Source: Bacillota bacterium (GTDB taxonomy: Bacteria; Bacillota; Clostridia; Christensenellales; CAMQZB01). From it: a DNA stretch of 64,000 nt. Positions 44,839 to 60,845 of this stretch are shown one piece after another. Position numbers and translations under genes: made by a program. The stretch lies in assembly GCA_044426045.1 (NCBI GenBank), contig JAWXUX010000006.1, positions 50,571-114,570 of the forward strand, in the 5' to 3' direction. The notes below the pieces were generated by a model. It was not told where the DNA came from, made no database searches, and saw only the letters and a program-made list of their open reading frames with translations. Each line of letters begins with the position of its first letter. Position 1 is the first letter of the stretch.

Positions 44839-45606
44839 ATGAACACAATTTTAACTGTTGGAAAACACAATCAAACATACGACGTGAACTGGCATTCACA
44901 CAAAAGCTGGGAACTAGTTTTTTGCACTAGTGGGCTTGGCACTTTCCTTATTGAAAACAACGGAAGTGGCAAAAAGATGGACTACAAGAAAAATGATTTG
45001 GTCATTATTCCGCCAAACACTGTGCACGCCAACGTTTCCGATCACGGATTTAAAAATATCCACATCACCCTTGACAATCTTTCAATCGGGATTGATGAAA
45101 TCGCAAAAATCAAGGACACAAGCAATAAAATTTTCCTTGGTTGCATGGCTGATATCTACTACATTTATAACTGCGACATCATGGGCAAAGAAGCGATACT
45201 TCAAAACCTTGGCGACCTTATCGCATCATATATCGTCGCTTTTTCAGATATCAAGAGATATTCTCCAATCATCGAAAAAATGCGTCATTCAATTTTCAGA
45301 CACTTCGCTGAATCAACTTTTGATTTGAACGATATGTTCGACCTTGAAGAAAACTACAACTCAAATTATCTCAAAAAACTCTTCAAAAAAGAAATCGGCA
45401 CTTCGCCACAACAATTCTTGATTGACCTTAGAATAACATACGCAAGAAAATTGCTTTCAAACACCATTGAAGACAGTATCTCAATTTCCCACGTAGCCTA
45501 CGAATGTGGCTACGACGACCCACTTTACTTCTCAAGAGTATTCAAAACAGCCACAGGCCACTCACCAAAAGAATACCATAAACTTGCGAAAAGTGCGGAA
45601 CTGTAA
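44839..45606 (+). CDS. AraC-family transcriptional regulator (cupin plus HTH)
   Basis: The C-terminus ..SPQQFLIDLRITYARKLL..ISHVAYECGYDDPLYFSRVFK..TGHSPKEY is the AraC HTH signature. Confidence 0.85.
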   Translation: MNTILTVGKHNQTYDVNWHSHKSWELVFCTSGLGTFLIENNGSGKKMDYKKNDLVIIPPNTVHANVSDHGFKNIHITLDNLSIGIDEIAKIKDTSNKIFLGCMADIYYIYNCDIMGKEAILQNLGDLIASYIVAFSDIKRYSPIIEKMRHSIFRHFAESTFDLNDMFDLEENYNSNYLKKLFKKEIGTSPQQFLIDLRITYARKLLSNTIEDSISISHVAYECGYDDPLYFSRVFKTATGHSPKEYHKLAKSAEL

Positions 45607-45625
45607 AAAAATGCGTAGCATTTTT
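45607..45625 (+). terminator. small terminator-like hairpin after the AraC gene
   Basis: AAAAATGC-GTA-GCATTTTT. A near-identical AAAAATGC-TCC-GCATTTTT flanks element copy 2 at 46991-47009. Confidence 0.4.
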
Positions 45626-45629
45626 AAAA

Positions 45630-45827
45630 GGTGAAAGGTGAAAGGTGAAAGGTGAAAGGTGTGGTAAGCACTCGGCTTCGCCTCGTGCATACAATATTAA
45701 ATATGAAACTATAAAAGTCACAAACAATTCAAAATGTTTGTGACTTTTTTTATTTTTCAATATAGAAAGCACAAGCGAAGCGAGTGCATTACCACACCTT
45801 TCACCTTTCACCTTTCACCTTTCACCT
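45630..45827. repeat. palindromic heptamer-tipped element, copy 1 (type I centre)
   Basis: (GGTGAAA)x4-GGTGTGGTAAGCACTCGGCTTCGCCTCGTGCATACAATATTAAATATGAAACTA..GTCACAAACA/TGTTTGTGAC hairpin+T7..ATAGAAAGCACAAGCGAAGCGAGTGCATTACCACACC-(TTTCACC)x4. Confidence 0.9.
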
Positions 45828-45885
45828 CAAAAAAAGCGTTCCAAAACACACACGCTAACCCTCGCCAAAACAGCGGGCACCAAAG

Positions 45886-46707
45886 CTATTCCTTCTCAAA
45901 AACCAATTTCTCCACCGCCCACGCGACTCCGTCTTGTTCGTTTGATAGGGTGTAGAAATTTGCGACGGATTTCACTTCGGCAACGGCGTTTGCCATGGCA
46001 ACACCTACGCCTTTTTCGCTTGCGAATTTTATCATGGAAACGTCGTTATATCCGTCGCCACAGCAAATCAAGTCGCTTTTGTCAAAGCCTAGGATTGGCA
46101 AAACTTTTTCGATTGATTTTGCCTTGTCTACGCCAAGTGGCACGATTTCAATAAAGAATGGTTCCGATCTGAAAACCCCCATAACGCCCTTATATTTTTC
46201 CGCGAGCACCTCGCAAAGTTTTTCCGCTTTTTCGGGCGCCGCCGTCATAAGGCATTTATTCACAGGGAATGTGATTTTGTCGAAATCTTCCACTTCTTTT
46301 ATTGGAAGTCGCAACAAATTCGCTTCAAATTTCACATATTCATCAACAAAAGTACCGCTGATCACTTCTTTTTCGTTGTACGTCAAAATTCCGCAATCAT
46401 ATGTTTTTGCAAACTCGAAAAGTTCGGGTATATATTTATTGTCAAGCTTTTGCTCGAAAACAACTTCCCCCGTTTTGTGATTTATCACCCTTGCGCCGTT
46501 ATACGAAAGGGAATATCCCCCACGAAGTGCAAATTCAAGCTCGTCGGCAATAAAAAGCACGCCAGGAGTTGGTCTGCCCGTTGCAAGCATGCAAGAATGC
46601 CCCATATCCATCATTTTTATTATAGTCTCGCGAGTTTTCGCGGTGATTTGCTTCTTTTGATTAGTAAGCGTTCCATCAATATCCAGCACAAGTAGCTTTT
46701 TGTTCAT
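45886..46707 (-). CDS. Cof-type HAD-IIB hydrolase
   Basis: LLVLDIDGTL (motif I), ..ATGR.. (motif II) and ..CCGDGYNDVSM.. (motif IV). Confidence 0.85.
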   Translation of the reverse strand: MNKKLLVLDIDGTLTNQKKQITAKTRETIIKMMDMGHSCMLATGRPTPGVLFIADELEFALRGGYSLSYNGARVINHKTGEVVFEQKLDNKYIPELFEFAKTYDCGILTYNEKEVISGTFVDEYVKFEANLLRLPIKEVEDFDKITFPVNKCLMTAAPEKAEKLCEVLAEKYKGVMGVFRSEPFFIEIVPLGVDKAKSIEKVLPILGFDKSDLICCGDGYNDVSMIKFASEKGVGVAMANAVAEVKSVANFYTLSNEQDGVAWAVEKLVFEKE

Positions 46708-46777
46708 AATGACCCCTTTTATAGTACCCTTTTTTATATGATAGCAGATTTTTGGTGAAAAGCCAAGGCTTTTTATA

Positions 46778-46989
46778 GGTAATAGGTAATAGGTAATAGG
46801 TAATAGGTGTGGTAATGCACTCGCTTCGCTTGTGCTTTCTATATTTTAAAATGATAATAGCCAGCAAACTTTATAAATCGTTTGCTGGCTGTTGTAGTTT
46901 CATATTAAAATAATGTGTGCACGGAGCGGAACGCGTAGTGCCTACCACACCTATTACCTATTACCTATTACCTATTACCTATTACCTAT
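46778..46989. repeat. palindromic heptamer-tipped element, copy 2 (type I centre, inverted, GGTAATA variant)
   Basis: (GGTAATA)x4-GGTGTGGTAATGCACTCGCTTCGCTTGTGCTTTCTATATT..CCAGCAAAC/GTTTGCTGG hairpin..GTGCACGGAGCGGAACGCGTAGTGCCTACCACACC-(TATTACC)x6. Confidence 0.9.
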
Positions 46990-47007
46990 TAAAAATGCTC
47001 CGCATTT

Positions 47008-49275
47008 TTAAACTTCAATCTCAAACTCTTCTCCTGCGTTATCGAATTTGAACACGAGTTCTCCGCCTACTTCTGCTTTTCCTGCGGCGAATTCGTAATC
47101 TGTGCCCGCTTTTGATGGGTAGAAGCATGAAACCAAGACATGGTTTTTCGCTTTTCCTGATGTCATAGTGTAGTGCCATTGTTTTTCAAGACCTGCGTAT
47201 TCTTCTGGGTTCACATCTGGGAATTCATCAGTGAGCGCCACATCGGCAATGCCTGAAGAAATGTGAAGCATTTGCATATCCAAATTCGCTTTTTCGCCAC
47301 GGATTGCATACTTATCTTCTTCAAATTCTGGTTTATAAATTGAATGAAGCAAGAAGTTCACTGGAAGTTCTTCTGAAACGTCAACTTTATCGATAATCAC
47401 ATAATATGTGTTATCAACCCAATAGATTTCTCTCGTGAAGTTTTCAAGTTCAGGCACGTTTTCAGCGTATGCTTTAGTCGCGTTTTCTTTCACATAAACA
47501 TATTTTTCAGTTTCTTCAAATTTTTCAACTTCGCCTGTTGCACTTAGTTGTTTGATTTTATCTTGGAGTGCATATTGACCTCTGCCGTCAACCAAAATAC
47601 AGTTTTTAGATTTCGTATGTCTTCTCCATTTTTTGTGCATATCGCTATCAAAAGAAACATAATAGCCACTTTCCACAAGAAGTGGGTCGCCATAGGCAAA
47701 CATCATGATTGCGTTTTGGTCGCCGTGTGAGTGAGAAACACAGCCATATCTGCTTGATTTTGTGAGTAGGAACACGTGGTTATCGTCGTCGTGCATATCT
47801 TTGTGCATTGCAACCCAGCCAACGTCGCCAAAATATCTCACGTTTCTGCCCGCTTTTGGAGCTTTTGAAACTAGCGGTGCGTGGTTTGACATGAACATCA
47901 TTTCGTCGAAATAGAAATCCCACCAACCGTTGTTATAAAACAAACCGTCATAATAATCTGATCTTTCAGCAATTCTGTCGCAATACCATTGATTTTCCGC
48001 ATTGCCAGTGTTTCCCGCAAGTGCACGAGCGTTGAAGCCCGCTTTCAAGATTGGTTTTTCGCCGATATTTGATTGGTCGCCAAATGAAGTTCTGTATGAA
48101 TCATGTGGCCAGCAATAAAGCGTGAAATCCGCTGTTTTTTGGAAGAATGGTCTTTTGAAAATGTCGATACCAGTGAAGTTTTTGAGCAAATTCAATGCGT
48201 CAATAAGGAAAGCAAGACCAGTTGTGTGGTACATTCCGCCTTCAGCCCAACCGCCGTCTTTTCCGCCCCAAGGCGTGTAAAGAACGTTCACATAATCAAC
48301 GGCACAGTTAACCCAATCTGCCGCTTCTTCATGGTCGTTATATAAAACAATTCCGCAAGGAACAAGCACTGAAGAAACCGAACGCACAGCGTGGCTGTCA
48401 AACAGCGCATATTGAATTTTTGAATCGTGGAAAACGTGAGTGATAACCTCTTTTGTTCTGATAACAAGAGATTCCAAAACTTTCGCTTTTTGCTCTTCAT
48501 TCATGTGGTTATAAAGCCAGTCATAACCCCAGCAAAGTGCGCCAACAACGCGGAATGCCGCTTCGTCGTTATAGCTTCTTTTTGTTGAGCCAAGTGGGTC
48601 CCAACCCGCGAGGTCAACCAACACTTCAATACCTTCGTTGATCCATTCCTCGTTATCTGTCACAACGCCCGCAACCGCAAGGAAACGCACGCGATTGAAA
48701 ACTTCTTGACAATCTTGATAACTTCTTCTCCAAAGTGGACGAGTTCTTTCATCGTTTGGATATCTTGCAGGCTCTTTCAAAAGTGGAGTGCCGGCATATC
48801 TTTTCACAGCGCCCTCGACAAATTTATCGAAATTGCAATGAGTGATATCCGCTTTCACTGCTGCTTTGAATTTTGCAAGTCTGTCGCCACAAAGCCACAA
48901 TCTTGGATGTGCAAGATCAGAATTTTCAAATCTCACATCAGCATATGGCATTGGACTTTCAGGGAGTCCCATTTCAAGTTCAAACTCGCGAACCGCGCTG
49001 AATTCATATTCACCGCCAGAAAGAGTGTATCTCCAGAAATATTTTCCAGGTGCCAATGTGTGATTTGGCGCAAAAAAGTTATATTTCAAGTTTGAATATT
49101 TATGTACGTCAGTTTCAAAGCTAGAATCTGTTGAAACTTCCAAATCGTATGGACCGTTTTCTTCATTAGTTGGTAGCCAAGAAAATCTTGGTGGATTTTC
49201 TGTCACTTCTGTGCTGCTTGGCAAATATTGCACCGTGAATATCCCACTTTCAGGTTCAATCAATTTTTTCATCAT
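47008..49275 (-). CDS. heparinase II/III-family polysaccharide lyase-like protein (DUF4962-type N-terminus)
   Basis: ..SRYGCVSHSHGDQNAIMMFAYGDPLLVESGYY.. is typical of the Hepar_II_III domain. Start set at the ATG after a GGAGA RBS. Confidence 0.75.
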   Translation of the reverse strand: MMKKLIEPESGIFTVQYLPSSTEVTENPPRFSWLPTNEENGPYDLEVSTDSSFETDVHKYSNLKYNFFAPNHTLAPGKYFWRYTLSGGEYEFSAVREFELEMGLPESPMPYADVRFENSDLAHPRLWLCGDRLAKFKAAVKADITHCNFDKFVEGAVKRYAGTPLLKEPARYPNDERTRPLWRRSYQDCQEVFNRVRFLAVAGVVTDNEEWINEGIEVLVDLAGWDPLGSTKRSYNDEAAFRVVGALCWGYDWLYNHMNEEQKAKVLESLVIRTKEVITHVFHDSKIQYALFDSHAVRSVSSVLVPCGIVLYNDHEEAADWVNCAVDYVNVLYTPWGGKDGGWAEGGMYHTTGLAFLIDALNLLKNFTGIDIFKRPFFQKTADFTLYCWPHDSYRTSFGDQSNIGEKPILKAGFNARALAGNTGNAENQWYCDRIAERSDYYDGLFYNNGWWDFYFDEMMFMSNHAPLVSKAPKAGRNVRYFGDVGWVAMHKDMHDDDNHVFLLTKSSRYGCVSHSHGDQNAIMMFAYGDPLLVESGYYVSFDSDMHKKWRRHTKSKNCILVDGRGQYALQDKIKQLSATGEVEKFEETEKYVYVKENATKAYAENVPELENFTREIYWVDNTYYVIIDKVDVSEELPVNFLLHSIYKPEFEEDKYAIRGEKANLDMQMLHISSGIADVALTDEFPDVNPEEYAGLEKQWHYTMTSGKAKNHVLVSCFYPSKAGTDYEFAAGKAEVGGELVFKFDNAGEEFEIEV

Positions 49276-49477
49276 ATAATTCTCCATTTCTCTTTTTTAA
49301 GACGTTCAGCTTTTAGCATACCGCCCCGTTTTTCTCTTTGGCAAGTACATCTCGCCACAACAATAGTAGTATACCACACTTTTGTGGTGTTATCAAGGGG
49401 TTTGGGGAGAAAGTTTGGGTTTGGGGGGAAGTTTTTTGAGTAAAATTTTGAAAGGTGCAATGTGCAATGTAAAAAAA

Positions 49478-49679
49478 GTGAAAGGTGAAAGGTGAAAGGT
49501 GAAAGGTGTGGTAGGCACTCGCTACGCTCGTGCACCCTATTTATATTTGGGCAGTAAAAAAGGAACGCTGCTATTGAATAGTTGCGCTCCTATCATGGAT
49601 TACATATATAATTGAAAAGCACAAGGCGAAGCCGAGTGCATTACCACACCTTTCACCTTTCACCTTTCACCTTTCACCT
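49478..49679. repeat. palindromic heptamer-tipped element, copy 3 (type II centre)
   Basis: GTGAAA(GGTGAAA)x3-GGTGTGGTAGGCACTCGCTACGCTCGTGCACCCTATTTATATTTGG..AGGAACGC/GCGCTCCT hairpin..ATATATAATTGAAAAGCACAAGGCGAAGCCGAGTGCATTACCACACC-(TTTCACC)x4. Confidence 0.9.
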
Positions 49680-49692
49680 TAAGCGTAGCGTC

Positions 49693-50118
49693 TCACTTCC
49701 CCTCTGCTCCAACATCCTCAGTTTCTCCCGCTTCTGCTTCGTATGGATTTTTCATGCAGAAGTTTGCAATGCATGACATTGTGTGGTCTGAGAAGATGTG
49801 CTCTAGTTTACAACACTCGATTTCGGCGTTTTCTTCTGTTGCACCAAGCGTGAGAAGAAATCTTTTCAAAAGGACGTGTTTGCAAGTGATTGAAAGGGCT
49901 ACTTTTCTGCCGTCTTCTGTCAAGATGATATCGCTGTAGGCTTCTTTTGTTATAAGTCCTTTTGCAATCAAATCGTTTGCAGCAACACTGACCGCGGGCT
50001 TAGTCACATTGAGTTCTTTCGCAACGTCCACTGATCTTGTTGAGCCATTTTTCATAAGACGCAAAATTGCCTCAAGGTAATCTTCGTTTGATGGTGTAAG
50101 GTTCAAATCTTTTGCCAT
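49693..50118 (-). CDS. DtxR/MntR-family metal-dependent transcriptional regulator
   Basis: ..TPSNEDYLEAILRLMKNGSTRSVDVAKELNVTKPAVSVAANDLIAKGLI.. Confidence 0.85.
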   Translation of the reverse strand: MAKDLNLTPSNEDYLEAILRLMKNGSTRSVDVAKELNVTKPAVSVAANDLIAKGLITKEAYSDIILTEDGRKVALSITCKHVLLKRFLLTLGATEENAEIECCKLEHIFSDHTMSCIANFCMKNPYEAEAGETEDVGAEGK

Positions 50119-50218
50119 TTTTTATCCCTCTCTATACTCTCTTTTTTCATAGTATACACTACTTAACAAAAAATGTCAACCCCCTTAAACTTTTTTGAGG
50201 GAAAGGGAGGGAGGAGAT

Positions 50219-50437
50219 AGGTAATAGGTGAAAGGTAGAAAAGGTGAAAGGTGAAAGGTGAAAGGTGAAAGGTGTGGTAAGCACTCCGCTTCGCTCCGTG
50301 CACCCCATTATATTTGGCTAGTAAAATAGGAACGCCCCTAAAAAATAGTTACGTTCCTACAAGTGGTTACAAATATAATTGAAAAGCACGAGGGCACCGA
50401 GTGCATTACCACACCTTTCACCTTTCACCTTTCACCT
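50219..50437. repeat. palindromic heptamer-tipped element, copy 4 (type II centre, mixed heptamer array)
   Basis: The left array reads AGGTAAT AGGTGAA AGGTAGA AA AGGTGAA x4. Arms are GGTGTGGTAAGCACTCCGCTTCGCTCCGTGCACCCC.. and ..GCACGAGGGCACCGAGTGCATTACCACACC-(TTTCACC)x3. Centre hairpin AGGAACG/CGTTCCT. Confidence 0.9.
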
Positions 50438-50495
50438 TAAAAAAGCGTCGCAAACAACTCCGCTCACACAAACCAACCTGCGTGCCCCCTCGCTC

Positions 50496-52319
50496 TTATT
50501 CGAGCAGTGACAGTCCTGTGTATAAATCAAAATATCTGCCTTTCTTTTCGAGAAGTTCGTGGTGGTTGCCTTGTTCGATAATCTCGCCTTTTTCAAGCAC
50601 CATTATTCTGTCGGAATTTCGCACTGTTGAAAGGCGGTGGGCGATGACAAAGGTTGTTCTTTGGCTTGTGAGCCTGTCAAGCGCTTGTTCGATATATCTT
50701 TCTGTTCTTGTGTCCACCGAGCTTGTTGCCTCGTCAAGAACCAAGATTGGTGCTTTTGAAATTGCCGTTCTTGCGATATTCAAAAGCTGCCGTTGACCTT
50801 GCGAAAGATTTGAACCGTCGCCGTCAAGCATAGTGTCGTATCCATGCTCAAGCCTTCTGATAAAGCCATCGGCGTTTGCCGTTTTTGCAGCCTCGATAAC
50901 TTCTTCGTCGCTCGCGTCAAGTCTGCCGTAACGAATATTTTCCATAACCGTGCCAGAAAAAAGATGCGTGTCTTGAAGCACCACTGCGATATTTTCGCGA
51001 AGGAAATCTTTTTTGATGTGGCGAATATCCACGCCGTCGATTGTAATCTCCCCGCTGTTGATTTCATAAAAACGGTTAACAAGGTTGATAATCGTTGTTT
51101 TGCCAGCGCCAGTCGAGCCAACAAAAGCGATTTTTTCACCCGAGTTTGCCGAAAGGCTGATACCTTTCAAGATTGTTTGACCTTCAACATATCCAAAAAC
51201 TACATCTTTGAATTCAACATTGCCAATCATGTTTTCAATTTCCACCGCATCATCTGCATCGGCAAATTCAGGGTCGGCATCCATAACGTCAAACACGCGC
51301 TCTGCACCCGCAAGGGCTGCAAAAATAGTGTTGACTTGCCCCGCCATATCGTTGATTGGGCGAGTGAAACTTCTTGCATAGTTAACAAACACGGTGTAGC
51401 CACCCACGTCAAATCCTTGCAAAAGACACATCATGCCCGCAACACCCGCAGTGACTGAATAACTGAGCTGTCCGATTGAAGACATGATAGGTCCCATCAT
51501 ACTGCTTAAAAATTGTGCGTTGAAAGATTTTTTGCGATAGTCTTGGTTAAGGCTTGAAAAGCCCTTTGCAGCTTCCTCCTCATGATTGAAAACCTTGATG
51601 ACTTTTTGACCTGTCACAAGTTCTTCGATATATCCGTTAAGTTCGCCGATCGAACCTTGTTGCGCCTTATATGCCTTCATGCTTCGCTTGCCGATTTGCT
51701 TTGTTGCAAGGGTGAACATTGGCGAAAGGCAAAGTGTCACAATCGTCAAAATCCAGTTAGTGTAGAACATGATACACGTTATTGTGATAAGGGTTATAAT
51801 CCCCGAAATGAACTGCACGCATGTTGTTGAAAGCATTTGATTGATAACATCGACGTCGTTTGTGAAACGGCTCATAAGGTCGCCGTTGTTGTGGCTGTCG
51901 AAATATTTCAATGGCAATTTTTGAAGTGCCACCAAAAGGTCATAACGCATTTTTTCAAGCGCCGATTGTGCAACTTCAAGCATCAATCTTGATTGCATAT
52001 AGTTGCTGACACCCGCACACGCATAAATGCTTGCCATGATGATAAGGTTTTTCACAAGCGTTGTAAGCCCCGAACCATCGATGATTCCATTGATGATTGG
52101 ACGAACCATATATGCCGCGATAAGCGTCAGCACGGCGTTTGCCACGATAAAGAAAAACGCAACGCTGAGAAGGATTTTTCTCGCACTGAGATACCCCCAA
52201 ATGCGGAGGATTGTTTCTTTTGTGTTTCTGAGTTTTGGTCTTTCGGCAAATCTTCTGCCGGCAGGTCCTGGACCACGTTGTGGAAGAAGCTCTAAGCCTT
52301 GTTTAGCAGCCATATTCAC
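50496..52319 (-). CDS. ABC transporter, fused permease/ATPase (exporter, second subunit)
   Basis: Walker A GSTGAGKTT, signature LSQGQRQ, Walker B ILVLDEATS, and an N-terminal 6-TM domain. Confidence 0.9.
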   Translation of the reverse strand: MNMAAKQGLELLPQRGPGPAGRRFAERPKLRNTKETILRIWGYLSARKILLSVAFFFIVANAVLTLIAAYMVRPIINGIIDGSGLTTLVKNLIIMASIYACAGVSNYMQSRLMLEVAQSALEKMRYDLLVALQKLPLKYFDSHNNGDLMSRFTNDVDVINQMLSTTCVQFISGIITLITITCIMFYTNWILTIVTLCLSPMFTLATKQIGKRSMKAYKAQQGSIGELNGYIEELVTGQKVIKVFNHEEEAAKGFSSLNQDYRKKSFNAQFLSSMMGPIMSSIGQLSYSVTAGVAGMMCLLQGFDVGGYTVFVNYARSFTRPINDMAGQVNTIFAALAGAERVFDVMDADPEFADADDAVEIENMIGNVEFKDVVFGYVEGQTILKGISLSANSGEKIAFVGSTGAGKTTIINLVNRFYEINSGEITIDGVDIRHIKKDFLRENIAVVLQDTHLFSGTVMENIRYGRLDASDEEVIEAAKTANADGFIRRLEHGYDTMLDGDGSNLSQGQRQLLNIARTAISKAPILVLDEATSSVDTRTERYIEQALDRLTSQRTTFVIAHRLSTVRNSDRIMVLEKGEIIEQGNHHELLEKKGRYFDLYTGLSLLE

Positions 52320-54045: not shown

Positions 54046-54267
54046 CTTTCCCCCATAAAGTCCATTATATAATGTTCCAAGTGGCAAATCTTCACCACTT
54101 TTTTCCCATCCTTATTATATTATAGCCCGATTTTTTTTCGGTGTCAACAAATTGATAGCGAGATTGAGATTTTTTTACATGTTAGTGTGGTAGATGGTGT
54201 TGGGAAGTCTTTTGGTGCACGCATTTGGCGCAGGGGGGAGAGGTTTAAAAGCGGGACGCAGTTTTTG

Positions 54268-54457
54268 AGGTGAAAGGTGAAAGGTGAAAGGTGAAAGGTA
54301 AGGTAGGCACTCGCTTCGCTCGTGCATACAATATTTTTGATTTATGACTATATTAGATTTTTTCATTGTGAAGTGTTCGGTTTTGTAATAAATATAAAGT
54401 AATGGAAAGCACAAGGGCAAAGCCCGCGTGCATTACCACACCTTTCACCTTTCACCT
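54268..54457. repeat. palindromic heptamer-tipped element, copy 5 (divergent centre)
   Basis: (AGGTGAA)x4-AGGTAAGGTAGGCACTCGCTTCGCTCGTGCATACAATATTTTTGATT....GGAAAGCACAAGGGCAAAGCCCGCGTGCATTACCACACC-(TTTCACC)x2. Confidence 0.85.
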
Positions 54458-54759
54458 TTAAAAACAGCGTTCACAACCCCAACTCTCCCCCAAAACAAAA
54501 AAGCGGGCAAAAAAAAATCCCCCACAGCAAAATCGCAAAGCCGCGGGGGGAAAGGTGATAGCTATTAAATTATAATTGAAAGCAGATTTCCATCTCGAGG
54601 TTGGATTATAAAAACACCAACCGTACCGCCTATCGGCAGGGACAGAATCGTGCTTTGTGCAAGGCAAAGGGTTATTTGGGCGAGGGCGCGTACTGACGTA
54701 CGTAACCGAGCACAAATGTTCCTTTAACGCAGCAGAAAGTGCGATTGTGGCACTGCCTG

Positions 54760-56010
54760 TTATTGCCAGTTTGCAAGAAGATATCTCTCCGCCTCCACGC
54801 ACCAAAGTCCGTTATTCCTTTTAACGATTTCGTCTAGCACTGCAAATCTTTCGTCTGTTTTGCCGATTTCCGCAAAATCTTCAAGGTCTGTTAGTGGCAT
54901 ATTGATGTGGTTATAAATCATTTTTTTACCGCCTGGAATTTTTGGCAAGTTCAAGATTGTTTCAGCACAGCAGTCAATTCCGCCAATGTGGGTTACCATA
55001 ACCGCTGGGTTAACCTTGCCCGCTGCCGAAAGGTCAAGTGATTCAATCAAATCGTCTGTGTTTCCGCCCGTTGTTCCGATAAGGTGGCTTGCGTTGTAGT
55101 GAACGTTATAGAAATTCACTTTTGCTGAAAGCCCTGTGTCGGTTGGACCTGCAAAGAAGTTCAAACAACCGTCTCTGGCAAGAATTTGGTCGCCAAGCTC
55201 GATAAGTGGCACGACAGGAGCATAAACAAACACGTCGTCGAAGCCGTCTTTTGAATATCCCAAAAGGAATTCTTTCACATCTTCAACGCCTGAAGTGTTA
55301 ACAAATTCGATAGTCACGCCGTTTTGCTTGCCTTTTGCTTCGAACAAGTCTTTTGCACGAGCAAGTTTTTTCGCGTCGATATCAACAACGATCATATATG
55401 AAGGGCGAATATCGCCTGAAATTGCATAATCAATCGCACCAAGACCCATTGGACCTGCACCCGCAAGAATTGCAAGGTTTCCGCCTTTCTTGATACCCAT
55501 TTCATGAACATAACTGCCCATTTTTGTGTGGAAACTTGCGTGGAATGCGCCAACACTGCAAGAAAGTGGCTCAGCAAGTGATGCTTCAAAATAACCTTCA
55601 CCGCCATATTCAAAGAAACAACCAAGTTCCATAACTTCTTGTGGAATGATACAATATGTTGCATTGCCACCAAAATATTGATATGAATAACCAGGTGACC
55701 ACATTGTGCCCTTATAATTTAGTGCAGGTTGCAATGTGAATTTTGCACCAACGTGGAACTGACCGTCATATTTAGACCCAACTTTCACGATGTTGCCCGC
55801 CATTTCATGACCCATGATAACAGGCGCGTTTGCTACGTCATCTGGCACACGTTTGTGGTTTTCACCAAGAATCGCACATTTATATGTCGACATACAAACA
55901 CTGTCTGAAATAACTTCAACCAAGATTTCATCATCCTTGATTTCTGGAAGTTCAAATTCTTCAAGTCTCAAATCACTAGCTCCATAAAGTCTTACCGCTT
56001 TCGTTTTCAT
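54760..56010 (-). CDS. zinc-dependent (MDR-family) sugar/polyol(-phosphate) dehydrogenase, SorE-like size
   Basis: ..VISDSVCMSTYKC..GHEMAGNIVKVG.. (catalytic Zn ligands) and the GAGPMGLGAIDY Rossmann motif. 416 aa. Confidence 0.75.
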   Translation of the reverse strand: MKTKAVRLYGASDLRLEEFELPEIKDDEILVEVISDSVCMSTYKCAILGENHKRVPDDVANAPVIMGHEMAGNIVKVGSKYDGQFHVGAKFTLQPALNYKGTMWSPGYSYQYFGGNATYCIIPQEVMELGCFFEYGGEGYFEASLAEPLSCSVGAFHASFHTKMGSYVHEMGIKKGGNLAILAGAGPMGLGAIDYAISGDIRPSYMIVVDIDAKKLARAKDLFEAKGKQNGVTIEFVNTSGVEDVKEFLLGYSKDGFDDVFVYAPVVPLIELGDQILARDGCLNFFAGPTDTGLSAKVNFYNVHYNASHLIGTTGGNTDDLIESLDLSAAGKVNPAVMVTHIGGIDCCAETILNLPKIPGGKKMIYNHINMPLTDLEDFAEIGKTDERFAVLDEIVKRNNGLWCVEAERYLLANWQ

Positions 56011-56079
56011 ATTTTTACCTACCTTCTTTAAAATTTTTTTTATTATTTTTTTATTTTTCTGTTAGATTGTTTTTTGTTC

Positions 56080-56178
56080 GTGGGCTCTGCCCACACCCGC
56101 AAGGGTGTGACACCCTTGACCCCAATATTGGGGACAGTGGTTTTTAAGTTTTGTTTCTGGAAAAGGCTTCGCCTTTTC
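56080..56178 (-). promoter_or_regulatory. cluster of GC-rich, partly mutually exclusive hairpins in the leader of the dehydrogenase gene
   Basis: GTGGGC-TCT-GCCCAC (56080-94); CACCC-GCAA-GGGTG (56094-107); GGGTGT-G-ACACCC (56103-115); palindrome CCCCAATATTGGGG (56120-133); GAAAAGGC-TTC-GCCTTTTC (56160-178). Confidence 0.3.
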
Positions 56179-56249
56179 TTCTGTTTTATTTTTTGGTTTA
56201 TAGTTTCCTTTTGATAAAAGCTCTCGCTTTTTTAGTCTAGTTCATCACG

Positions 56250-56326
56250 TTATAATATATTGAATGCACGAGGCAACGCCGAGTGCTTTACCACACCTTT
56301 CACCTTTCACCTTTCACCTTTCACCT
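56250..56326. repeat. palindromic element, copy 6 (solo half: one arm plus heptamers only)
   Basis: ..ATATATTGAATGCACGAGGCAACGCCGAGTGCTTTACCACACC-(TTTCACC)x4. No partner arm lies to the left. Confidence 0.8.
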
Positions 56327-56343
56327 TAAAAAGCTCCGCGTTT

Positions 56344-56808
56344 CTAAACTTCCACATTTTCAAGCAACGTTTTCAAAATAAACTTCTTATCCTCGCTCAC
56401 AACCAATTTTCCAATCACATCATCTTCCATCATGATTGTTGCAACGCCTTGCAAAATTGGGATGTGGTCTTCGCCGGCGCCCGCAATACCGATGATAAGG
56501 TTTGCTTTTTCGCCGTCGAAATCAACGCCTTCAGGGAATTGGATAACAACTAGCCCCGTTTTTTTCACAAACTTTTTAAGCTCGCCAACGCCGTGAGGAA
56601 TTGCCACCCCTTCGCCGAGATATGTTGTCATGATTTTTTCACGCTCCACCATGCCTTCGATATAGTTTTCTTCAACGCAACCCTTTGCAACAAGCATTCT
56701 GCCCGCCATTCTGATTGCTTCAAATTTATCAACTGACTTTGCGCCAACCACGATATCATCAAGCGTGATGATTGCATTCACATCTTTTTTCTTTCCAAAT
56801 AGTCCCAT
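56344..56808 (-). CDS. mtlF: PTS mannitol-specific EIIA component
   Basis: ..TTYLGEGVAIPHGVGE..VVIQFPEGVDFDGEKANLIIGIAG.. is collinear with the IIA domain of E. coli MtlA. Confidence 0.85.
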   Translation of the reverse strand: MGLFGKKKDVNAIITLDDIVVGAKSVDKFEAIRMAGRMLVAKGCVEENYIEGMVEREKIMTTYLGEGVAIPHGVGELKKFVKKTGLVVIQFPEGVDFDGEKANLIIGIAGAGEDHIPILQGVATIMMEDDVIGKLVVSEDKKFILKTLLENVEV

Positions 56809-56852
56809 AATAGCCTCCGATTATTTCTGTTATTTCTTATTATCATTTATTA

Positions 56853-58859
56853 TCATTCTTTATAGTTATCAAAATAATAGTTATAAAGAATTTCTTTAAC
56901 TTTTTCTTTTATTTCATCTTCACTGCCAAACTTGATTGTGTTATAAAAATTATCATCAAGCACAAGTTGTTGACTGATTTCGCTGATGATTTTCACGCCT
57001 AGTTTTGAGGAATTTGGCACAAGCATAACAACCCCGCAAGAAACGCTTTCTTTTGGGCTTTCAAGGGTGATTTTCTTTTCAAATCTCACAACCCCGAAAC
57101 ACGCTTTTGAAACGCCAGAAGTTTTCGCATGAAGCAATATCATCTCGCCATCCGCCATAACGGTGCTTCCGATTTCCTCGCGAGAAGCAATGTCTTTTGC
57201 AATTTGCATTTTTGTTTCCACACTCTCGCCATAAAAGCTAGCAATTTTTTCTATCACCGCCGAAATTTCTTTTGCGTTGATTTTTTCAAACATCATGTCA
57301 GAAAGCACATCGGCAATCACGCCTTTTGTTTGCATTTTCTCCACTACGCTATCCGCCATGTCCGTTTCGATTTTGCCAACTTCACGCATAAAATCGCGTT
57401 TGGCAACCTTTGAAATCGCAACCTCGATGATATCTTTATCTTTTGGCAAAATGAATGGTGAAACCACCGCTTGTGGAATTTCCACATCAACTGCTATCGT
57501 TGAAATCACGATGTCTATGCCCAAATCTTCCGCAATGATTTTCTTGACTTCCGAAACAGAAGAAGTTTTCACAACTTCCATATTTGGATACGCCTTTTTG
57601 ACGTTGATTGCAAGAAGTTGGCTTTGCGCAAGCCCGCTTGGGCACACGATCACCGCACGCGTTTTGTGCGTTCTTTCGGTTTTGCCGTCAAGTGCGATAA
57701 CACACATGTGCATTGTGAGATATCCAAGCTCACCTTTCGTGAAGCTTATTCCAGCTTCCTTATTGATTTCCAAACTGCACTGTTCCACCATTTGATAGAT
57801 ATCGGGATATGCCGTTTGAATTTCTGGAAGTATTGGGTTCAAAATTTCTATGTTTTTTTCACTTCTTTTAACTGTTGTCACGAGGTGGCGAATCAGTGAA
57901 GTGAAAAACTCGTTTTGCGCGTCAACCAAAATGCCAAAACTGCTTTCGAGTTTTTTTGCAAGCTTATTTGCAATATAAATCGCAAGTTCGCTTTCCCCGT
58001 CCACACCTGTTATGCCTTGCGTTAAAGAAAGCACGTCGGCAAAGAAATGGATTTCGCCAATAGAATATGATATTTTGTATTTTTCGATGAGTTTTGAGAT
58101 GATTTCCGATGAAACTTCAAGTGCTTTTTCCGAAGTGTTCTCGCTTGAAAGGGAAATTCGATTCCCCCCTTCCACGCGTTTTTTCTGGATATAAAGGTGA
58201 AGTGCAAGCATGTCGCGCGTTCTGTCGCTTGTGAAAAAATGTTTTTCGCCGTTCTCGGCATCAAGGATTTCCGCAATCTCTTTGAGTGCTTCCCTTGAAA
58301 TAAACTGCTCGATTGTTTTTGATGGCACGTCAAGAAGGGAAAAACCTCTTGTTGCTTCTTCGATAATTTCAAAAATCGCCATTCTTCGCCTTTCTTCACT
58401 TGCCACAACATAAACGCCGAAGCCTTGCTTTCTGACAAGAGTGATTTCCTTTTTTTCCAAGATTTCCGCAACTTTTGAAAGGTCGCTTGAAACTGTGAGT
58501 TCGCTTGTGCCAAGCGTGCTTGCAAGAGTAAATCTTTTGAGTGGGTCGCCGGAAAAAAGCAATGTTAAAAGCAAAATCACGCTTCGCTTTTCCTGAGAGA
58601 AAACTGGGATTGTCTTTTTTTCAAGGATTGAATCAAGAAGTTCGATTGTCCCTTCTTCTTTCAAAATTTTCACGCCTTTTCCGCTCTTTTTTTCAAGTGG
58701 CACGCCGATTGTTTCGAAAAACATGCTGATTTCTTCAAGCTCACGTTTGATTGTTCGCGTGCTTAAACTGAGCATGTCTGCGACAGCCTCGGTTGTGATA
58801 TAATCCCCAGCGTTGAAGATTATTCGAATTATCTCGTGTTGGCGTGATGAAAGTTTCAT
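56853..58859 (-). CDS. mtlR: MtlR-type PRD-domain transcriptional regulator (HTH-Mga-PRD-PRD-EIIB-like-EIIA-like)
   Basis: The N-terminus MKLSSRQHEIIRIIFNAGDYITTEAVADMLSLSTRTIKRELEE has the HTH. Size and position between mtlA and mtlF fit. The C-terminus resembles EIIA(Mtl/Fru) (..ILLHAKTSGV..). Confidence 0.8.
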   Translation of the reverse strand: MKLSSRQHEIIRIIFNAGDYITTEAVADMLSLSTRTIKRELEEISMFFETIGVPLEKKSGKGVKILKEEGTIELLDSILEKKTIPVFSQEKRSVILLLTLLFSGDPLKRFTLASTLGTSELTVSSDLSKVAEILEKKEITLVRKQGFGVYVVASEERRRMAIFEIIEEATRGFSLLDVPSKTIEQFISREALKEIAEILDAENGEKHFFTSDRTRDMLALHLYIQKKRVEGGNRISLSSENTSEKALEVSSEIISKLIEKYKISYSIGEIHFFADVLSLTQGITGVDGESELAIYIANKLAKKLESSFGILVDAQNEFFTSLIRHLVTTVKRSEKNIEILNPILPEIQTAYPDIYQMVEQCSLEINKEAGISFTKGELGYLTMHMCVIALDGKTERTHKTRAVIVCPSGLAQSQLLAINVKKAYPNMEVVKTSSVSEVKKIIAEDLGIDIVISTIAVDVEIPQAVVSPFILPKDKDIIEVAISKVAKRDFMREVGKIETDMADSVVEKMQTKGVIADVLSDMMFEKINAKEISAVIEKIASFYGESVETKMQIAKDIASREEIGSTVMADGEMILLHAKTSGVSKACFGVVRFEKKITLESPKESVSCGVVMLVPNSSKLGVKIISEISQQLVLDDNFYNTIKFGSEDEIKEKVKEILYNYYFDNYKE

Positions 58860-58950
58860 TGTTACCACCTTTTGTGGTTTTGAAAGCCGACCTTTCGGCT
58901 TTCAAGACCTTTATTTAATTTTGTTTTTTATTTTGGAAATGCCCTTTATT

Positions 58951-60330
58951 TTAATCTTTGAATTTTTCAATAAGCGCATCGTATTCGCCTTTGCCCATAA
59001 AGTTTTTCACTGGGTAAATTTCCGCATTTGGAACACGAAGTTTTGCCCTTTCCACAAGTTCGTTTTGAGTCACGACGATTTCGGTATCTTCTGGGATTGC
59101 ATTGATTGCGTAGTGTGGGATTTTCGCTTCAATTCCGTTTGCCGCAAACAGTTTGCGAAGAGTTGTCGCGCCCATTGCACTTGAACCCATGCCCGCATCA
59201 CAAGCAAACACGATTTTCTTTTCGATTGTTTTTGTTGCCACAGTTTCTGCTTTTGCACCTTTAGCTGTAGCCTTATCAGAATGAACTCTTTCTTGTGCTT
59301 CTTCAAAAGTTTCGTCCCCGCCTTTAGTCCTCTTCACGAAAATTGAAGCGACAAGGAAAGAAACCACTGTTGAAACCGCCACGCCAAGAAGCATGAACAC
59401 GATATCAGAAGCTGGACAAAGTGCAAGAAGTGCCAAAATGCTTCCCGGAGCCGGAGTTGCAACAAGACCAACATCAAACACGCCGAATGTGAACACACCC
59501 GCAGCACCACCCGCGATAACCGCAAGAAGCATAGCTGGATTCATAAGAACGAATGGGAAATACATTTCGTGGATACCACCAAAGAAGTGGATAATCGCAG
59601 AACCTGATGCAGTTGATTTTGTTGAGCCTTTAGAAAATACTGCATAAGCAAGCAAAATTCCTAGCCCCGGTCCTGGGTTTGATTCGATAAGGAACATGAT
59701 TGATTTTCCAGTTTCCGCAGCTTGAGCCATTCCTATTGGACCCATTATACCATGGTTTATTGCATTATTCAAGAACAAAACTTTCGCTGGTTCAACAATA
59801 ATTGAAAGAAGTGGCAACAACCCTGCGTCATAAATGAAATCTGCACCCGCCATAAGTGCGTTTGAAATGACTGTTACAAACGGTCCCACCAAATAGAACC
59901 CAACAACCACAAGTCCAGCACCGATGATACCAATCGAGAAGTTATTAACAAGCATTTCAAAGCCCGCTTTGATTTTGCCTTCAACCGCTTTGTCGAATTG
60001 CTTGATTATCCACGCAGAAAGTGGTGCAAACATCATGACACCCAAAAACATTGGAATATCAGAACCAACAATAACACCGATTGAACCGATAGCGCCCATA
60101 ACAGCACCTCTGTCCCCTGCGACCATCTTACCCGCTGTGTAGCCCACAAGAAGTGGCAACAGATAATACAAAATCGGATCAACCAACGTTGCAAGTTGTT
60201 CATTTGGGAAGTACCCAGTTGAAATGAACAATGCTGTCAGAATACCCCATGCAAGGAATGCGCCGATGTTTGGCATAACCATTGCACTTAAAAATCGTCC
60301 TACTTTTTGGACATTAGCTTTGATTGACAT
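58951..60330 (-). CDS. mtlA: PTS mannitol transporter subunit IICB
   Basis: Collinear with E. coli MtlA (..VQKVGRFLSAMVMPNIGAFLAWGI.., ..EPAKVLFLNNAINHGI.., ..IESNPGPGLGILLAY.., IIB ..IVFACDAGMGSSAMGA..). Confidence 0.92.
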   Translation of the reverse strand: MSIKANVQKVGRFLSAMVMPNIGAFLAWGILTALFISTGYFPNEQLATLVDPILYYLLPLLVGYTAGKMVAGDRGAVMGAIGSIGVIVGSDIPMFLGVMMFAPLSAWIIKQFDKAVEGKIKAGFEMLVNNFSIGIIGAGLVVVGFYLVGPFVTVISNALMAGADFIYDAGLLPLLSIIVEPAKVLFLNNAINHGIMGPIGMAQAAETGKSIMFLIESNPGPGLGILLAYAVFSKGSTKSTASGSAIIHFFGGIHEMYFPFVLMNPAMLLAVIAGGAAGVFTFGVFDVGLVATPAPGSILALLALCPASDIVFMLLGVAVSTVVSFLVASIFVKRTKGGDETFEEAQERVHSDKATAKGAKAETVATKTIEKKIVFACDAGMGSSAMGATTLRKLFAANGIEAKIPHYAINAIPEDTEIVVTQNELVERAKLRVPNAEIYPVKNFMGKGEYDALIEKFKD

Positions 60331-60364
60331 AATTTATCCCCCTATTCGGATATTTTATCAATTT

Positions 60365-60396
60365 TGCAAAATCTTGACTGATTGTGCAAGATTTTG
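60365..60396. promoter_or_regulatory. 11-bp perfect inverted repeat in the mtlA leader/promoter region
   Basis: GCAAAATCTTG-N10-CAAGATTTTGC, 35-65 nt upstream of the mtlA start. Confidence 0.4.
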
Positions 60397-60468
60397 CGTA
60401 TCGATTTATTTCTTGACTAAAGTATAACACACCCCCAAGCGACTTTCAACCCCCAACTTAGCATAAAC

Positions 60469-60521
60469 GTGACATGCGACTTAGTGACACGGGTTTAGGA
60501 GCGGGGAGGGAGTTAGTGACA
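60469..60521 (-). promoter_or_regulatory. three TGTCAC-containing repeats; candidate MtlR binding sites
   Basis: Minus strand: ATGTCACTAA, GTGTCACTAA and ATGTCACG, at 60516-21, 60484-89 and 60469-74. They resemble the TGTCAC/GTGACA half-sites I recall for the Bacillus MtlR operator. Confidence 0.3.
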
Positions 60522-60583
60522 TGGGGAGGGGGTGTAGGTAAGTTTGGGAGAGGAGGGAGTTTTTGGGGGTAGGTAAGTTTTTA

Positions 60584-60786
60584 AGGTGAAAGGTGAAAGG
60601 TGAAAGGTGAAAGGTGTGGATTGCACTCGCTACCGCTCGTGCTTTCTATGTTTCAAAATAAAAAAGTCACAAACAACTTATGTCGTTTGTGACTTTTAAT
60701 AGTTTCCATATTTTAATTTGATATGCACGAAGCGGTACGCGTAGTGCCTACCACACCTTTCACCTTTCACCTTTCACCTTTCACCT
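60584..60786. repeat. palindromic heptamer-tipped element, copy 7 (type I centre, inverted)
   Basis: (AGGTGAA)x4-AGGTGTGGATTGCACTCGCTACCGCTCGTGCTTTCTATGTTTCAAAATAAAAAAGTCACAAACA..TGTTTGTGAC..ATATGCACGAAGCGGTACGCGTAGTGCCTACCACACC-(TTTCACC)x4. Confidence 0.9.
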
Positions 60787-60845
60787 TAAAAAAGCGTCAC
60801 CAAAAACAACGCTCCCTCAACACAAAAAGCGGGCATAAATCAACG

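Follow-up and report, generated by a model that had tools for sequence, protein, structure and literature searches.

Copies of the repeat at the locus

The stretch of DNA analysed here, a 64-kb window, carries six full copies and one half copy of a family of palindromic repeats about 200 bp long, which lie in the gaps between transcription units. All seven were found at the positions given in a preliminary description of this sequence, and its proposal of a repeat family with fixed modular architecture is supported. From the outside in, a copy consists of an outer mini-hairpin with a T-run, a perfect heptamer array, the junction TGTGGTA, a REP-like imperfect hairpin (the arm), an AT-rich centre of 80-85 nt and then the mirror image of these parts. 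Copy 1 sits between an AraC-type gene and a HAD gene that converge on it. The left edge of copy 2 adjoins the -35 box in the promoter of the HAD gene, and copy 3 begins 10 nt past the stop codon of a DtxR/MarR-type gene. The copies and their main parts are as follows.

34691-34741, no strand assigned: solo (AATTAAA)7.3 array adjoining an ordinary terminator hairpin; 9.3 units in the sister strain
45621-45835, plus: copy 1, full element; B end left, A end right, type I centre; -86 kcal/mol (z = -18) when folded as DNA
45621-45688, plus: copy 1 left tip; T-run, (GGTGAAA)5 array at 45627-45661, junction TGTGGTA, arm hairpin GCAC-TC-GGC-TTC-GCC-TC-GTGC
45713-45748, plus: copy 1 centre terminator; hairpin AAAAGTCACAAAC/GTTTGTGACTTTT, then T7
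45769-45835, minus: copy 1 right tip; arm, TACCACA junction, (TTTCACC)4.7 array, A-run
46770-46994, minus: copy 2, full element; A end left, B end right, type I centre
46859-46890, minus: copy 2 centre terminator hairpin AGCCAGCAAAC/GTTTGCTGGCT; T-rich tail on the minus strand
49398-49472, plus: outer layer left of copy 3; G-rich, C-poor, with a 19-nt repeat and (GTGCAAT)2
49473-49682, minus: copy 3, full element; type II centre
49561-49591, minus: copy 3 centre terminator; hairpin AGGAGCGC...GCGTTCCT, then T6 on the minus strand
50212-50447, minus: copy 4, full element; type II centre
50328-50358, minus: copy 4 centre terminator hairpin AGGAACG/CGTTCCT; same module present in L016, a related locus
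54262-54465, minus: copy 5, full element; divergent centre without a terminator hairpin, left junction variant TAAGGTA
56260-56332, minus: copy 6, single unit (right half only); (GGTGAAA)4.9, TGTGGTA, arm with a B-like tail
60500-60577, plus: outer layer left of copy 7; G-rich, C-poor, with three copies of the 17-nt repeat GGGAGTAGGTAAGTTTT
60578-60792, minus: copy 7, full element; A end left (junction variant TGTGGAT), B end right, type I centre
60662-60697, minus: copy 7 centre terminator; same stem as copy 1, then TTATTTT

When the whole 64 kb was searched without filters, a covariance model built on the arm recovered 13 arms, all within the seven copies; the sole additional match was weak and lay on the opposite strand of a copy 1 arm. 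Since every arm found falls inside the seven copies, the first 45 kb contains none. The preliminary description had called this region free of copies, which is confirmed for the palindromic element, although the solo (AATTAAA)7 array within it had been overlooked. The sequence GGTGAAAGGTGAAAGGTG occurs 30 times at up to two mismatches, against 0.01 occurrences expected from shuffles. Tandem Repeats Finder reported 13 heptamer arrays at 96-100% match; in copy 2 these are GGTAATA arrays of 4.9 and 6.1 units, and the left array of copy 4 falls to 90% once the degenerate units on its outer side (GGTAATA, GGTAGAAAA) are counted.

The distribution is patchy. Region 27-45 kb has no copy in either strain. 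Past the end of the window, the next 9 kb of the sister strain hold two further full copies and another half copy, giving one species with eight full and two half copies in about 27 kb, while the adjacent 18 kb are empty. From position 1 to 27 kb the sequence is a low-GC island of foreign origin that bears an integrase and DNA methylases.

Arms, ends and flanks

On the inward-reading strand, the unit comprises the heptamer array, TGTGGTA, an imperfect hairpin and a short tail of A or B type. Most units form head-to-head pairs around the centre; the window holds six such dimers and one single unit (copy 6), and more of both kinds occur in the related loci L019, L016 and L009. Arms of about 20 nt had been described earlier; each arm measures 19-25 nt and is in itself an imperfect hairpin, with a GCAC/GTGC stem, a pyrimidine internal loop of 2-3 nt, a G+C apex stem of 2-5 bp and a triloop. 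In a set of 29 distinct arms, pairing is present in 95% of pair cells, and compensatory changes on both sides were seen in three of the six base pairs scored. Eight apex stems were seen (GC, GGC, GCC, GCG, GGGC, GGGGC, GG and AC/GT), and one outer arm stem is GCAT/ATGC. Apex length is unequal between the two arms of one element, and pairing is therefore maintained within each arm rather than between arms. GTGG lies inside the near-invariant GTGGTA, 3-4 nt from the hairpin foot, while GTAG adjoins the foot only where the arm's spacer is G, the other arms reading GTAA. The distinct A and B ends, which give copies 1, 3, 4 and 5 one orientation and copies 2 and 7 the other, were confirmed.

Similarity extends beyond the heptamers, where the flank motifs previously claimed are present. 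T5AA is the T-run of the outer mini-hairpin, and the T5AA/TTA5 flanks are inverted, not direct; as part of the palindrome they were rejected as a target-site duplication. The outer layer left of copy 3 is absent from the orthologue in L008 and is read as decayed older arrays.

Centres and transcription termination

The centre carries a Rho-independent terminator, formed by a G+C-containing hairpin and a T-run on the transcribed strand. Those of copies 1 and 7 were found by a terminator scan and those of copies 2, 3 and 4 were read directly from the sequence. Type I and type II hairpins are as first described, as is the copy 5 centre, in which no terminator hairpin was found; the centres themselves measure 80-85 nt between arms rather than the 90-110 bp originally given. 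Their exchangeability likewise holds; at the L008 orthologue of copy 3 the centre has been swapped. A T-run facing incoming transcription had been seen in three copies; the terminator is now found co-directional with the upstream gene in nine of nine independent centres from four genomes (copies 1, 2, 3, 4 and 7, L008:321, L016:2489, L016:6429 and L016:20010). The next promoter begins 4-130 nt beyond the element, with strong promoters placed right after it.

This orientation bias points to a role in transcription and bears against a primary action at the DNA level, in which the elements would be protein-binding or topological sites (of gyrase or nucleoid-protein type, as for BIMEs) or recombination hot spots or boundaries, and the terminator would be secondary. 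A DNA-level role would agree with the core length, which is 132-142 bp in 15 of 17 elements and stays near 139 bp although the centres are unrelated, and with a GCGAAGC-like apex motif that recurs outside the arrays. Sequences of this kind form very stable DNA mini-hairpins. A 6.4-kb tract that is 100% identical between two strains also has its right end inside the right arm/array of copy 3, and BIMEs bind gyrase and IHF according to references given in PMC6006769. However, the tract supplies one recombination boundary only, with a chance of coincidence of about 5%, and there is no known binding protein. We regard a primarily DNA-level function as quite improbable.

We give still less credence to an RNA product, whereby the long hairpin would be processed, for example by RNase III, to a small RNA or a stabilising 3' end and the heptamers would be mere stem. 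Folded as RNA, whole elements do reach -118 kcal/mol (z = -13.5), and 12 of the 15 full elements have complementary tips despite the use of at least five unit types. On the other hand, the second half would rarely be transcribed if the central terminator works, the mismatch in the copy 3 recombinant is A-C on the transcribed strand, the arms keep their own hairpins at the cost of inter-arm pairing, and no Rfam family matched.

Heptamer arrays

The arrays are perfect tandem heptamers of 3-6 units, a correction to the two to four GGTGAAA units first reported, and they remain perfect though the cores of paralogous copies are only 75-91% identical. Relative to a 98.1%-identical strain, differences amount to 8.5% inside the elements and 1.6% outside them, and within the elements only the arrays and the layers outside them are affected. 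Heptamer copy number, for which a comparison between strains had been suggested, does differ: both one-unit changes and whole-array changes separate strains that are 98% identical. Solo arrays also lie beside ordinary terminators elsewhere among the examined loci. The tips are true microsatellites. An earlier reading of the repeats as Shine-Dalgarno and anti-Shine-Dalgarno sequences did not survive, because orthologous and paralogous copies use AATTAAA, GGTAATA, AAGTGAA or AGTGAAT, and the heptamer is therefore not under Shine-Dalgarno constraint.

Slippage by itself accounts neither for the recurrence of the same few units in different species nor for the switch of one copy 5 tip from TGAAAGG to TAATAGG in a strain with a 100% identical core. 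One could propose instead that the tips are iterated cleavage or binding sites of the element's own single-strand DNA enzyme, or telomere-like additions templated in trans, and that unit sequence is therefore set by a trans-acting factor and not by local slippage. Units in four genomes are drawn from a small common set (TGAAAGG, TAATAGG, TAAAAAT, TGAAAAG and GAATAGT), share the form T-N-N-A-N-R-K and keep one 7-nt register with the constant TGTGGTA, all of which would suit such an origin. So would the observations that arms follow orthology and arrays do not, and that at copy 5 the whole array was replaced on one arm with arm and flank untouched. In an unrelated metagenome (Ga0163153), a 100% identical element is present at two or more loci, its homology begins and stops exactly within the heptamer arrays, and its tips, (GGTGAAA)n and (AACCTCT)n, are non-complementary. 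Yet no candidate enzyme was found in the window and related loci, mixed arrays (left array of copy 4 and L016:6429) fit slippage with sorting of variants, solo arrays arise from ordinary terminator T-runs without an arm, and unit type shows no co-variation with arm spacer or junction. Among long simple repeats, heptamers are moreover the most frequent in bacteria as a whole (Mrazek 2007, as cited in PMC4679880). We consider enzyme-made tips unlikely.

Spread and age in related genomes

Related genomes that are 98, 87 and about 82% identical also carry the family, both at corresponding loci and elsewhere. The suspicion that it might be a local-duplication artefact was not borne out, as copies stand at non-orthologous loci of these genomes. 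Type II modules were found at four loci in two species at 81-86% identity, and L019:4772 and L019:8801 are 91% identical and share a nested 47-nt insertion. Variation in presence at orthologous loci, the third point raised in the preliminary description, exists between related genomes, where sites in L009 and L016 are empty or different, but none was seen within the species. No identical paralogues were seen; paralogue identity does not exceed identity between species, and there is therefore no sign of recent activity.

The age of the paralogues, the clustering of the copies and the lack of a target-site duplication could be taken to mean that the elements are immobile, that is, host terminators enlarged outward in situ when template switching at stalled forks extended the palindrome, with their resemblance due to old local duplications. 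Their concentric symmetric layers (terminator, arms, arrays, T-run, outer mini-hairpin, G-rich/C-rich flanks) also lend themselves to this view. However, A and B arms remain distinct in every copy and species, which argues against outward palindromisation since that process would erase the difference. The same arm-plus-centre modules at non-orthologous loci of different species, unrelated centres at orthologous sites and a related end in the unrelated metagenome likewise weigh against growth in place, to which we assign a low probability.

Comparison with described repeats

Rfam, proposed earlier as a test of novelty, returned no matches at gathering thresholds, and in E-value mode only plant microRNA hairpin models far below threshold. 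The family had no match in 185,579 species genomes, a set from which the source species is absent, nor in the searched literature; nothing matched the core among plasmids or phages, or the A-arm junction pattern among viral contigs. No Y1/HUH or other transposase was found in the scanned ORFs of the window or the gene calls of related loci.

Correia elements of Neisseria, ERIC, RUP and pneumococcal BOX are intergenic palindromes of 100-200 bp that can act on transcripts by terminating, promoting or stabilising them, and BOX contains one module in a variable number of tandem copies. The present elements resemble these MITE-type repeats in palindromy, intergenic position and size class, and differ in having no target-site duplication and, in contrast to BOX, in carrying tandem units of 7 nt at the tips and not in the middle. 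The elements lack the direct target-site duplications expected of a MITE derived from a DDE insertion sequence. No parent element sharing their ends turned up in the window or related loci. Integron attC sites were rejected, as there are no R''/R' core sites (RYYYAAC / GTTRRRY), the only integrase is that of the island, and the genes on either side are normal chromosomal ones that have promoters of their own and are syntenic across species.

Eukaryotic Foldback transposons have inverted terminal repeats made of tandem short units in variable number; the likeness is by analogy only, as they are far larger and their mechanism and hosts are unrelated. Among bacteria, cyanobacterial STRR, the TAACTGA repeats of Beggiatoaceae and the hepta/octanucleotide sites of Geobacter metallireducens share perfect tandem intergenic heptamers of 2-6 or more units, and the Geobacter sites form pairs, one member on each strand, whose spacing varies and which in some cases have insertion sequences a fixed distance away (PMC4679880, PMC2700814). 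Descriptions of these repeats do not place them at the tips of a pair of REP-like hairpins with a terminator, as the arrays here are, and each such family keeps one unit sequence, in contrast to the variation among copies seen here.

The resemblance to REPIN/BIME elements noted at the outset holds. REPs carry a GT[AG]G tag, form head-to-head dimers 20-100 bp apart and lie downstream of genes; REP, BIME and REPIN elements occur in E. coli, Pseudomonas and others, are mobilised by RAYT (TnpA_REP) and have been proposed to evolve by gene conversion (PMC3733652, PMC6006769; Higgins 1988, as cited in PMC12306157). Points in common are short, imperfectly palindromic units with a conserved internal stem mismatch and a possible GT[AG]G-type tag at the head, head-to-head dimers tens of bp apart, extragenic location downstream of coding regions, mosaics with other short motifs, and amplification of the unit. 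The present family differs in the perfect heptamer microsatellite on the head side of every unit, in a terminator built into a spacer of fixed length, and in having two unit types (A and B) per dimer. Its host is a member of the Bacillota, no RAYT gene was found in the window or related loci, and no REP/RAYT system was reported from Bacillota in the REP/RAYT literature searched.

Conclusions

The elements appear to be an undescribed variant of the REP/BIME/REPIN kind of repeat in an uncultured, gut-type Bacillota lineage. Our favoured explanation, with a probability of roughly 55%, is that they are lineage-specific mosaic repeats with hypervariable microsatellite tips that the host uses as terminator cassettes. 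They would have spread as whole modules, probably through single-stranded hairpin DNA and a Y1/HUH (RAYT-like) enzyme, with later mosaic evolution by ectopic recombination or gene conversion between copies. Replication slippage may homogenise the tips, and their complementarity may be preserved by the joint copying of both units together with palindrome-templated correction or conversion. Judging from sequence, the cassette would stop the upstream transcript, and the arm hairpin together with the terminator hairpin would leave it a nuclease-resistant 3' end; any read-through RNA would be predicted to enter a perfect stem of 60 bp or more and then a C-rich, G-poor flank.

The repeats of the window are best interpreted as a mosaic family of the REP/BIME/REPIN kind, used by the host as a default terminator cassette between transcription units. 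In the best-supported account of their microsatellite tips, slippage homogenizes the heptamers and conversion exchanges them between copies or between arms.

Distribution in the window

Six full copies and one half copy of the element (copies 1 to 7, copy 6 being the half copy) had been placed in the window by the preliminary description, and all were seen there upon reading of 45-64 kb. Tandem Repeats Finder located 13 perfect or near-perfect heptamer arrays in the copy region. A repeat finder sorted both tips into six-member families paired as inverted repeats, and an array 18-mer occurred 30 times (0.01 expected). A covariance model of the arm was built from 29 distinct arms and scanned with filters off. 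Within the window it matched 13 arms, all in known copies, and its sole extra match, a weak one, was to the copy 1 arm read from the opposite strand; the reported lack of copies in the first 45 kb was thereby borne out. Absence from the first 27 kb is expected given the low-GC island that occupies them:

Window 1-27000: integrated island, low GC (31-33%)
Window 21281-22618: tyrosine integrase of the island
Other island genes: three C5 DNA methylases, an SF1 helicase with DUF2726, a DUF2971 protein and an AAA/STAND-like gene

The island of the sister strain (L023) has the integrase/methylase end in common with that of the window and carries different cargo. The core genome at 27-45 kb is devoid of copies in the window and likewise in the sister strain. 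Other repeats do lie in this region, a solo (AATTAAA)7 array among them. Three copies of a 33-nt unit, AAAAAGTCGCGGTGCGAATTACGTTGCAGTGCA, separate the EamA gene from the SDR gene (42665-42768); the orthologous gap of the related genome L008 lacks them. At 29700-30100, a long in-frame low-complexity repeat of AAAGCA-type units with periods from 6 to 120 lies in the gene for a 700-aa BspA-type leucine-rich-repeat protein, which is absent from the equivalent region of L023.

An assembly artefact was ruled out, since the elements recur in independent assemblies (GCA_044426065.1, GCA_044426025.1, GCA_028748585.1 and Logan contigs). Short-read contigs start (L007, L021) or stop (L020, L004) within heptamer arrays; the elements thus break assemblies and are under-represented in metagenome-assembled genomes.

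Element anatomy

Each tip, read inward, is composed of four parts:

Part 1: small G+C hairpin and T-run, e.g. AAAAATGC-GTA-GCATTTTT
Part 2: perfect heptamers, three to six units
Part 3: TGTGGTA, a constant heptamer that shares the 7-nt register of the array
Part 4: arm, an imperfect hairpin

The arm runs in the order GCAC, pyrimidine loop (2-3 nt), G+C apex stem (2-5 bp), triloop, second loop and GTGC. Of the pair cells scored over these 29 arms, 95% are paired, and the pairing score exceeded all 500 shuffles and every slid control. Two-sided pair changes include CG/GC (14:14), GC to AU, and one outer stem of GCAT/ATGC. Apex length is often unequal between both arms of a single element, which argues that the preserved feature is each arm's own hairpin rather than pairing between arms. 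In its minimum-energy fold, the whole element nonetheless forms a single, very long hairpin (as DNA, -86 kcal/mol, z = -18). The two kinds of arm differ in spacer and tail: AT and TTTC[TA]AT in A arms, A or G and A[TC][AC]C in B arms.

Regardless of the center, the core from GTGGTA to TACCAC measures 132-142 bp in 15 of 17 elements, and both exceptions share one nested 47-nt insertion. In the sister strain, a ~47-nt nested insertion, TGTAGGGTCGCACCCATGTGTGCGTACCGTCCCAACGCCCGCC, occupies the same center position in two paralogous elements (L019 4855-4905 and 8893-8945), and a similar motif is found in a 1.5-kb repeat region of L019. Beyond the arrays, the inward-reading strands of the outer flanks are G-rich and nearly C-free (e.g. 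37 G and 1 C in 70 nt), and their repeats, 17-19-nt units and heptamers, are read as decayed older arrays.

Insertion with a target-site duplication (TA, TTAA or 7 bp) was rejected because the flanks are inverted, not direct, and an integron attC array because core sites are absent and the flanking genes are syntenic with promoters of their own. A Chi-like motif (GAAGCGG/AGCGG) was dropped, being found in some arms only. No co-variation of heptamer type with arm spacer or junction, as in an IS608-style guide/target system, was detected.

Spread and turnover in related genomes

Protein look-ups recovered a sister strain (‘MAG: Bacillota bacterium’; L015, L019 and L023) with 98.1% identity over 22 kb, two related genomes at ~87% (L008) and ~80-85% (L016) identity, and a more distant one, L009, whose orthologous protein is 81% identical. 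Arm model matches are present in all four. The model found no match in the distant Clostridia L010-L012 or in the metagenome contigs scanned, an arm pattern search found no arm in the distant Clostridia L010-L014, and L010 and L011 have no heptamer arrays. The source species is absent from the 185,579 species genomes and from the JGI metagenomes; the single contig match among the species genomes (Methyloprofundus) lies inside coding sequence and is due to chance.

Local duplication, an explanation considered in the preliminary description, is countered by L016, which has copies at loci non-orthologous to those of the window, e.g. after valS. The presence/absence variation raised there was also found: the gap between the heparinase-like and HAD genes is empty in L009, and that between the EIIA and dehydrogenase genes is empty in L016. 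At other orthologous sites the center differs (copy 3 versus L008:321, copy 4 versus L016:6429 and copy 5 versus L016:2489). For type II modules, identity is 81-86% among four loci of two species; for two paralogues with a common nested insertion it is 91%. Paralogues of one genome resemble each other no more closely than copies in different species do, and hence give no indication of a recent burst.

In the 9 kb past the window, the sister strain holds two further full copies and one half copy. Its genome carries several repeat families. A 1.5-kb intergenic region (L019 1982-3473) is built from G+C-rich hairpin repeats of another kind, whose units (~120 and ~200 nt) are present in both direct and inverted orientation, and also holds one half element.

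Variation of the heptamer tips

Orthologous elements keep their arms and may differ in their arrays. The copy 1 array is GGTGAAA in the window versus AGTGAAT in L008, and that of copy 2 is GGTAATA versus GGTGAAA, with flanks and arms almost unchanged. Relative to the sister strain, differences amount to 8.5% within elements and 1.6% outside, and those within elements all fall in arrays or outer layers. They comprise one-unit changes, an extra (GGGATAT)5 layer at copy 4, and two whole-array changes.

One of these, at copy 3, might be taken as an arm-by-arm change, given the mismatch in strain L015. It lies where a 6.4-kb tract without any difference from L015 (window 43200-49650) comes to an end; this tract is flanked by DNA that differs by 2-3%, and its right end falls inside the right arm/array of copy 3. 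The tract points to a recent recombination import ending in the element, so the copy 3 change is better explained by an inter-strain recombination joint inside it. Copy 5 is the only remaining one-arm switch: (TTTCACC)3 became (TATTACC)4 in one arm only, the core is 100% identical, and the recombination-boundary explanation does not apply.

The arrays are perfect despite old cores, a few unit types recur among genomes, and the tips match each other in 12 of 15 full elements. Arrays also occur alone. A solo (AATTAAA) array of 7.3 units abuts an ordinary terminator hairpin (window 34691-34741), that of the sister strain has 9.3 units (L023 11240-11304), and in L016 a solo (TTTTGTG)14 directly extends the T-run of a terminator (9048-9145). 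Conversely, arrays can hold other units: a 24-nt hairpin unit, CAGGCTTCGCTCTGCGAGCTCGAT, lies inside the arrays of three L016 elements (2453-2483, 6573-6600 and 15384-15414), and a small G+C hairpin, CGCTTCGC, plus TTAA is inserted inside heptamer arrays of L019 (4685-4700 and 4725-4740). Such nested units resemble tiny nested mobile repeats described in cyanobacteria.

An unrelated organism in the JGI metagenome Ga0163153 carries a ~100-nt element, 100% identical at two or more loci:

L003 930-1050: Ga0163153 element
L004 945-1047: Ga0163153 element
L007 1-105: Ga0163153 element

Its left tip reads (GGTGAAA)3-GGTGTGGTAA, followed by a compensated hairpin with CTTT/AAAG in place of GCAC/GTGC and then by ATACAATAT...TGAAA, as in the B ends of the window. 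The second tip is a different, non-complementary array, (AACCTCT)n, and flanking homology ends exactly at the arrays. This one case suggests that heptamer tips can belong to a transposing unit in other bacteria.

Terminators and neighboring genes

All genes beside the elements are ordinary. Among them are an AraC-type regulator, a HAD hydrolase, a DUF4962/heparinase-like enzyme, a DtxR/MarR-type regulator, an ABC exporter pair, a dehydrogenase, a PTS operon and an SPFH protein. Each element except copy 5 starts 10-53 nt after a stop codon. A good sigma-A-type promoter of the next gene follows the end of the element by 4-130 nt.

The centers of copies 1, 2, 3, 4 and 7 carry a hairpin and then a T-run on the strand of the incoming transcript. 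That terminators face incoming transcription had been proposed from few copies; across the window and the related genomes, all nine independent centers with a clear terminator are co-directional with the upstream gene (chance probability ~1 in 500). Along transcription, the order of the ends is B to A for type I centers and A to B for type II centers, so the orientation of the terminator module is independent of the ends. Yet the module always stands in the functional direction.

The earlier Shine-Dalgarno-like/anti-Shine-Dalgarno-like reading of the heptamers is contradicted by orthologous and paralogous copies, which use AATTAAA, GGTAATA, AAGTGAA or AGTGAAT. Nor are the units consistent with periodic RNA-binding motifs of the TRAP/HutP type. 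Window 54540-54770 was not significant as a structured RNA (z = -1.5). Adjoining copy 6, the leader of the dehydrogenase gene (56010-56252) is dense in short G+C hairpins (GTCCCCAATATTGGGG, AAGGGTGTCACACCCTT and GTGGGCAGAGCCCAC) and only ~75% identical when strains with an overall identity of 98% are compared.

Discussion

REP/BIME/REPIN-type repeats are textbook features of Proteobacteria, and the hairpin units nested in the arrays of the window family resemble the mosaic behavior of BIMEs. GTAG-tagged REPs form head-to-head dimers 20-100 bp apart downstream of genes, have an internal mismatch required for RAYT cleavage, and are reported in Proteobacteria, Cyanobacteria, Chloroflexi and the PVC group (PMC3733652), outside of which RAYT subclasses are described as sparse (PMC6006769). 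Bacillota are not among the reported hosts of GTAG-tagged REPs and RAYT genes in the surveys consulted. Intergenic TAACTGA heptamer repeats are known (PMC4679880), long simple repeats are most often heptanucleotides according to Mrazek 2007 (as cited in PMC4679880), and Geobacter has paired tandem hepta/octanucleotide sites on opposite strands (PMC2700814). Unlike the arrays of the window, known intergenic heptamer arrays are not described as tips of REP-like pairs. Full-text literature searches, by sequence and by combinations of terms, found nothing comparable, and Rfam, plasmid, phage and viral collections gave no match; plant microRNA precursors in Rfam, far below threshold, are long-hairpin look-alikes.

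The architecture is regarded as established, and so are the covariation in the hairpins, the orientation of the terminators, where the elements lie with respect to promoters, the fact that modules disperse and turn over, and the hypervariability of the arrays. Transcripts are predicted to end at the central terminators, and the hairpins may protect the 3′ ends. Read-through RNA would form a perfect long stem followed by a C-rich, G-poor tract. Mobilization may proceed as single-stranded hairpins handled by a Y1/HUH enzyme; no transposase was found in the window or in the sequences of related loci.

A more far-reaching alternative is that the repeats are the first members of a new class: small elements, processed as single-stranded DNA, with ends set by enzyme-maintained heptamer arrays, either iterated cleavage/recognition sites or templated additions. 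A trans-acting factor would set the unit, which could then switch as a block, and the class would extend to unrelated bacteria, as in the Ga0163153 element with its non-complementary tips. We consider this unlikely, and there is a small chance that the tips reflect a new enzymatic mechanism.

The elements matter in several respects. Their arrays are able to fragment metagenome-assembled genomes. The tips constitute a natural experiment in concerted evolution, in which perfect microsatellites on both arms of a palindrome switch unit type while the hairpins next to them do not change. With its built-in terminator in the correct orientation, the family is a clear example of a repeat that acts as the default boundary of transcription units. 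REP-type biology would reach a new phylum with such a family, dense and conserved in structure, in an uncultured clade of Bacillota.
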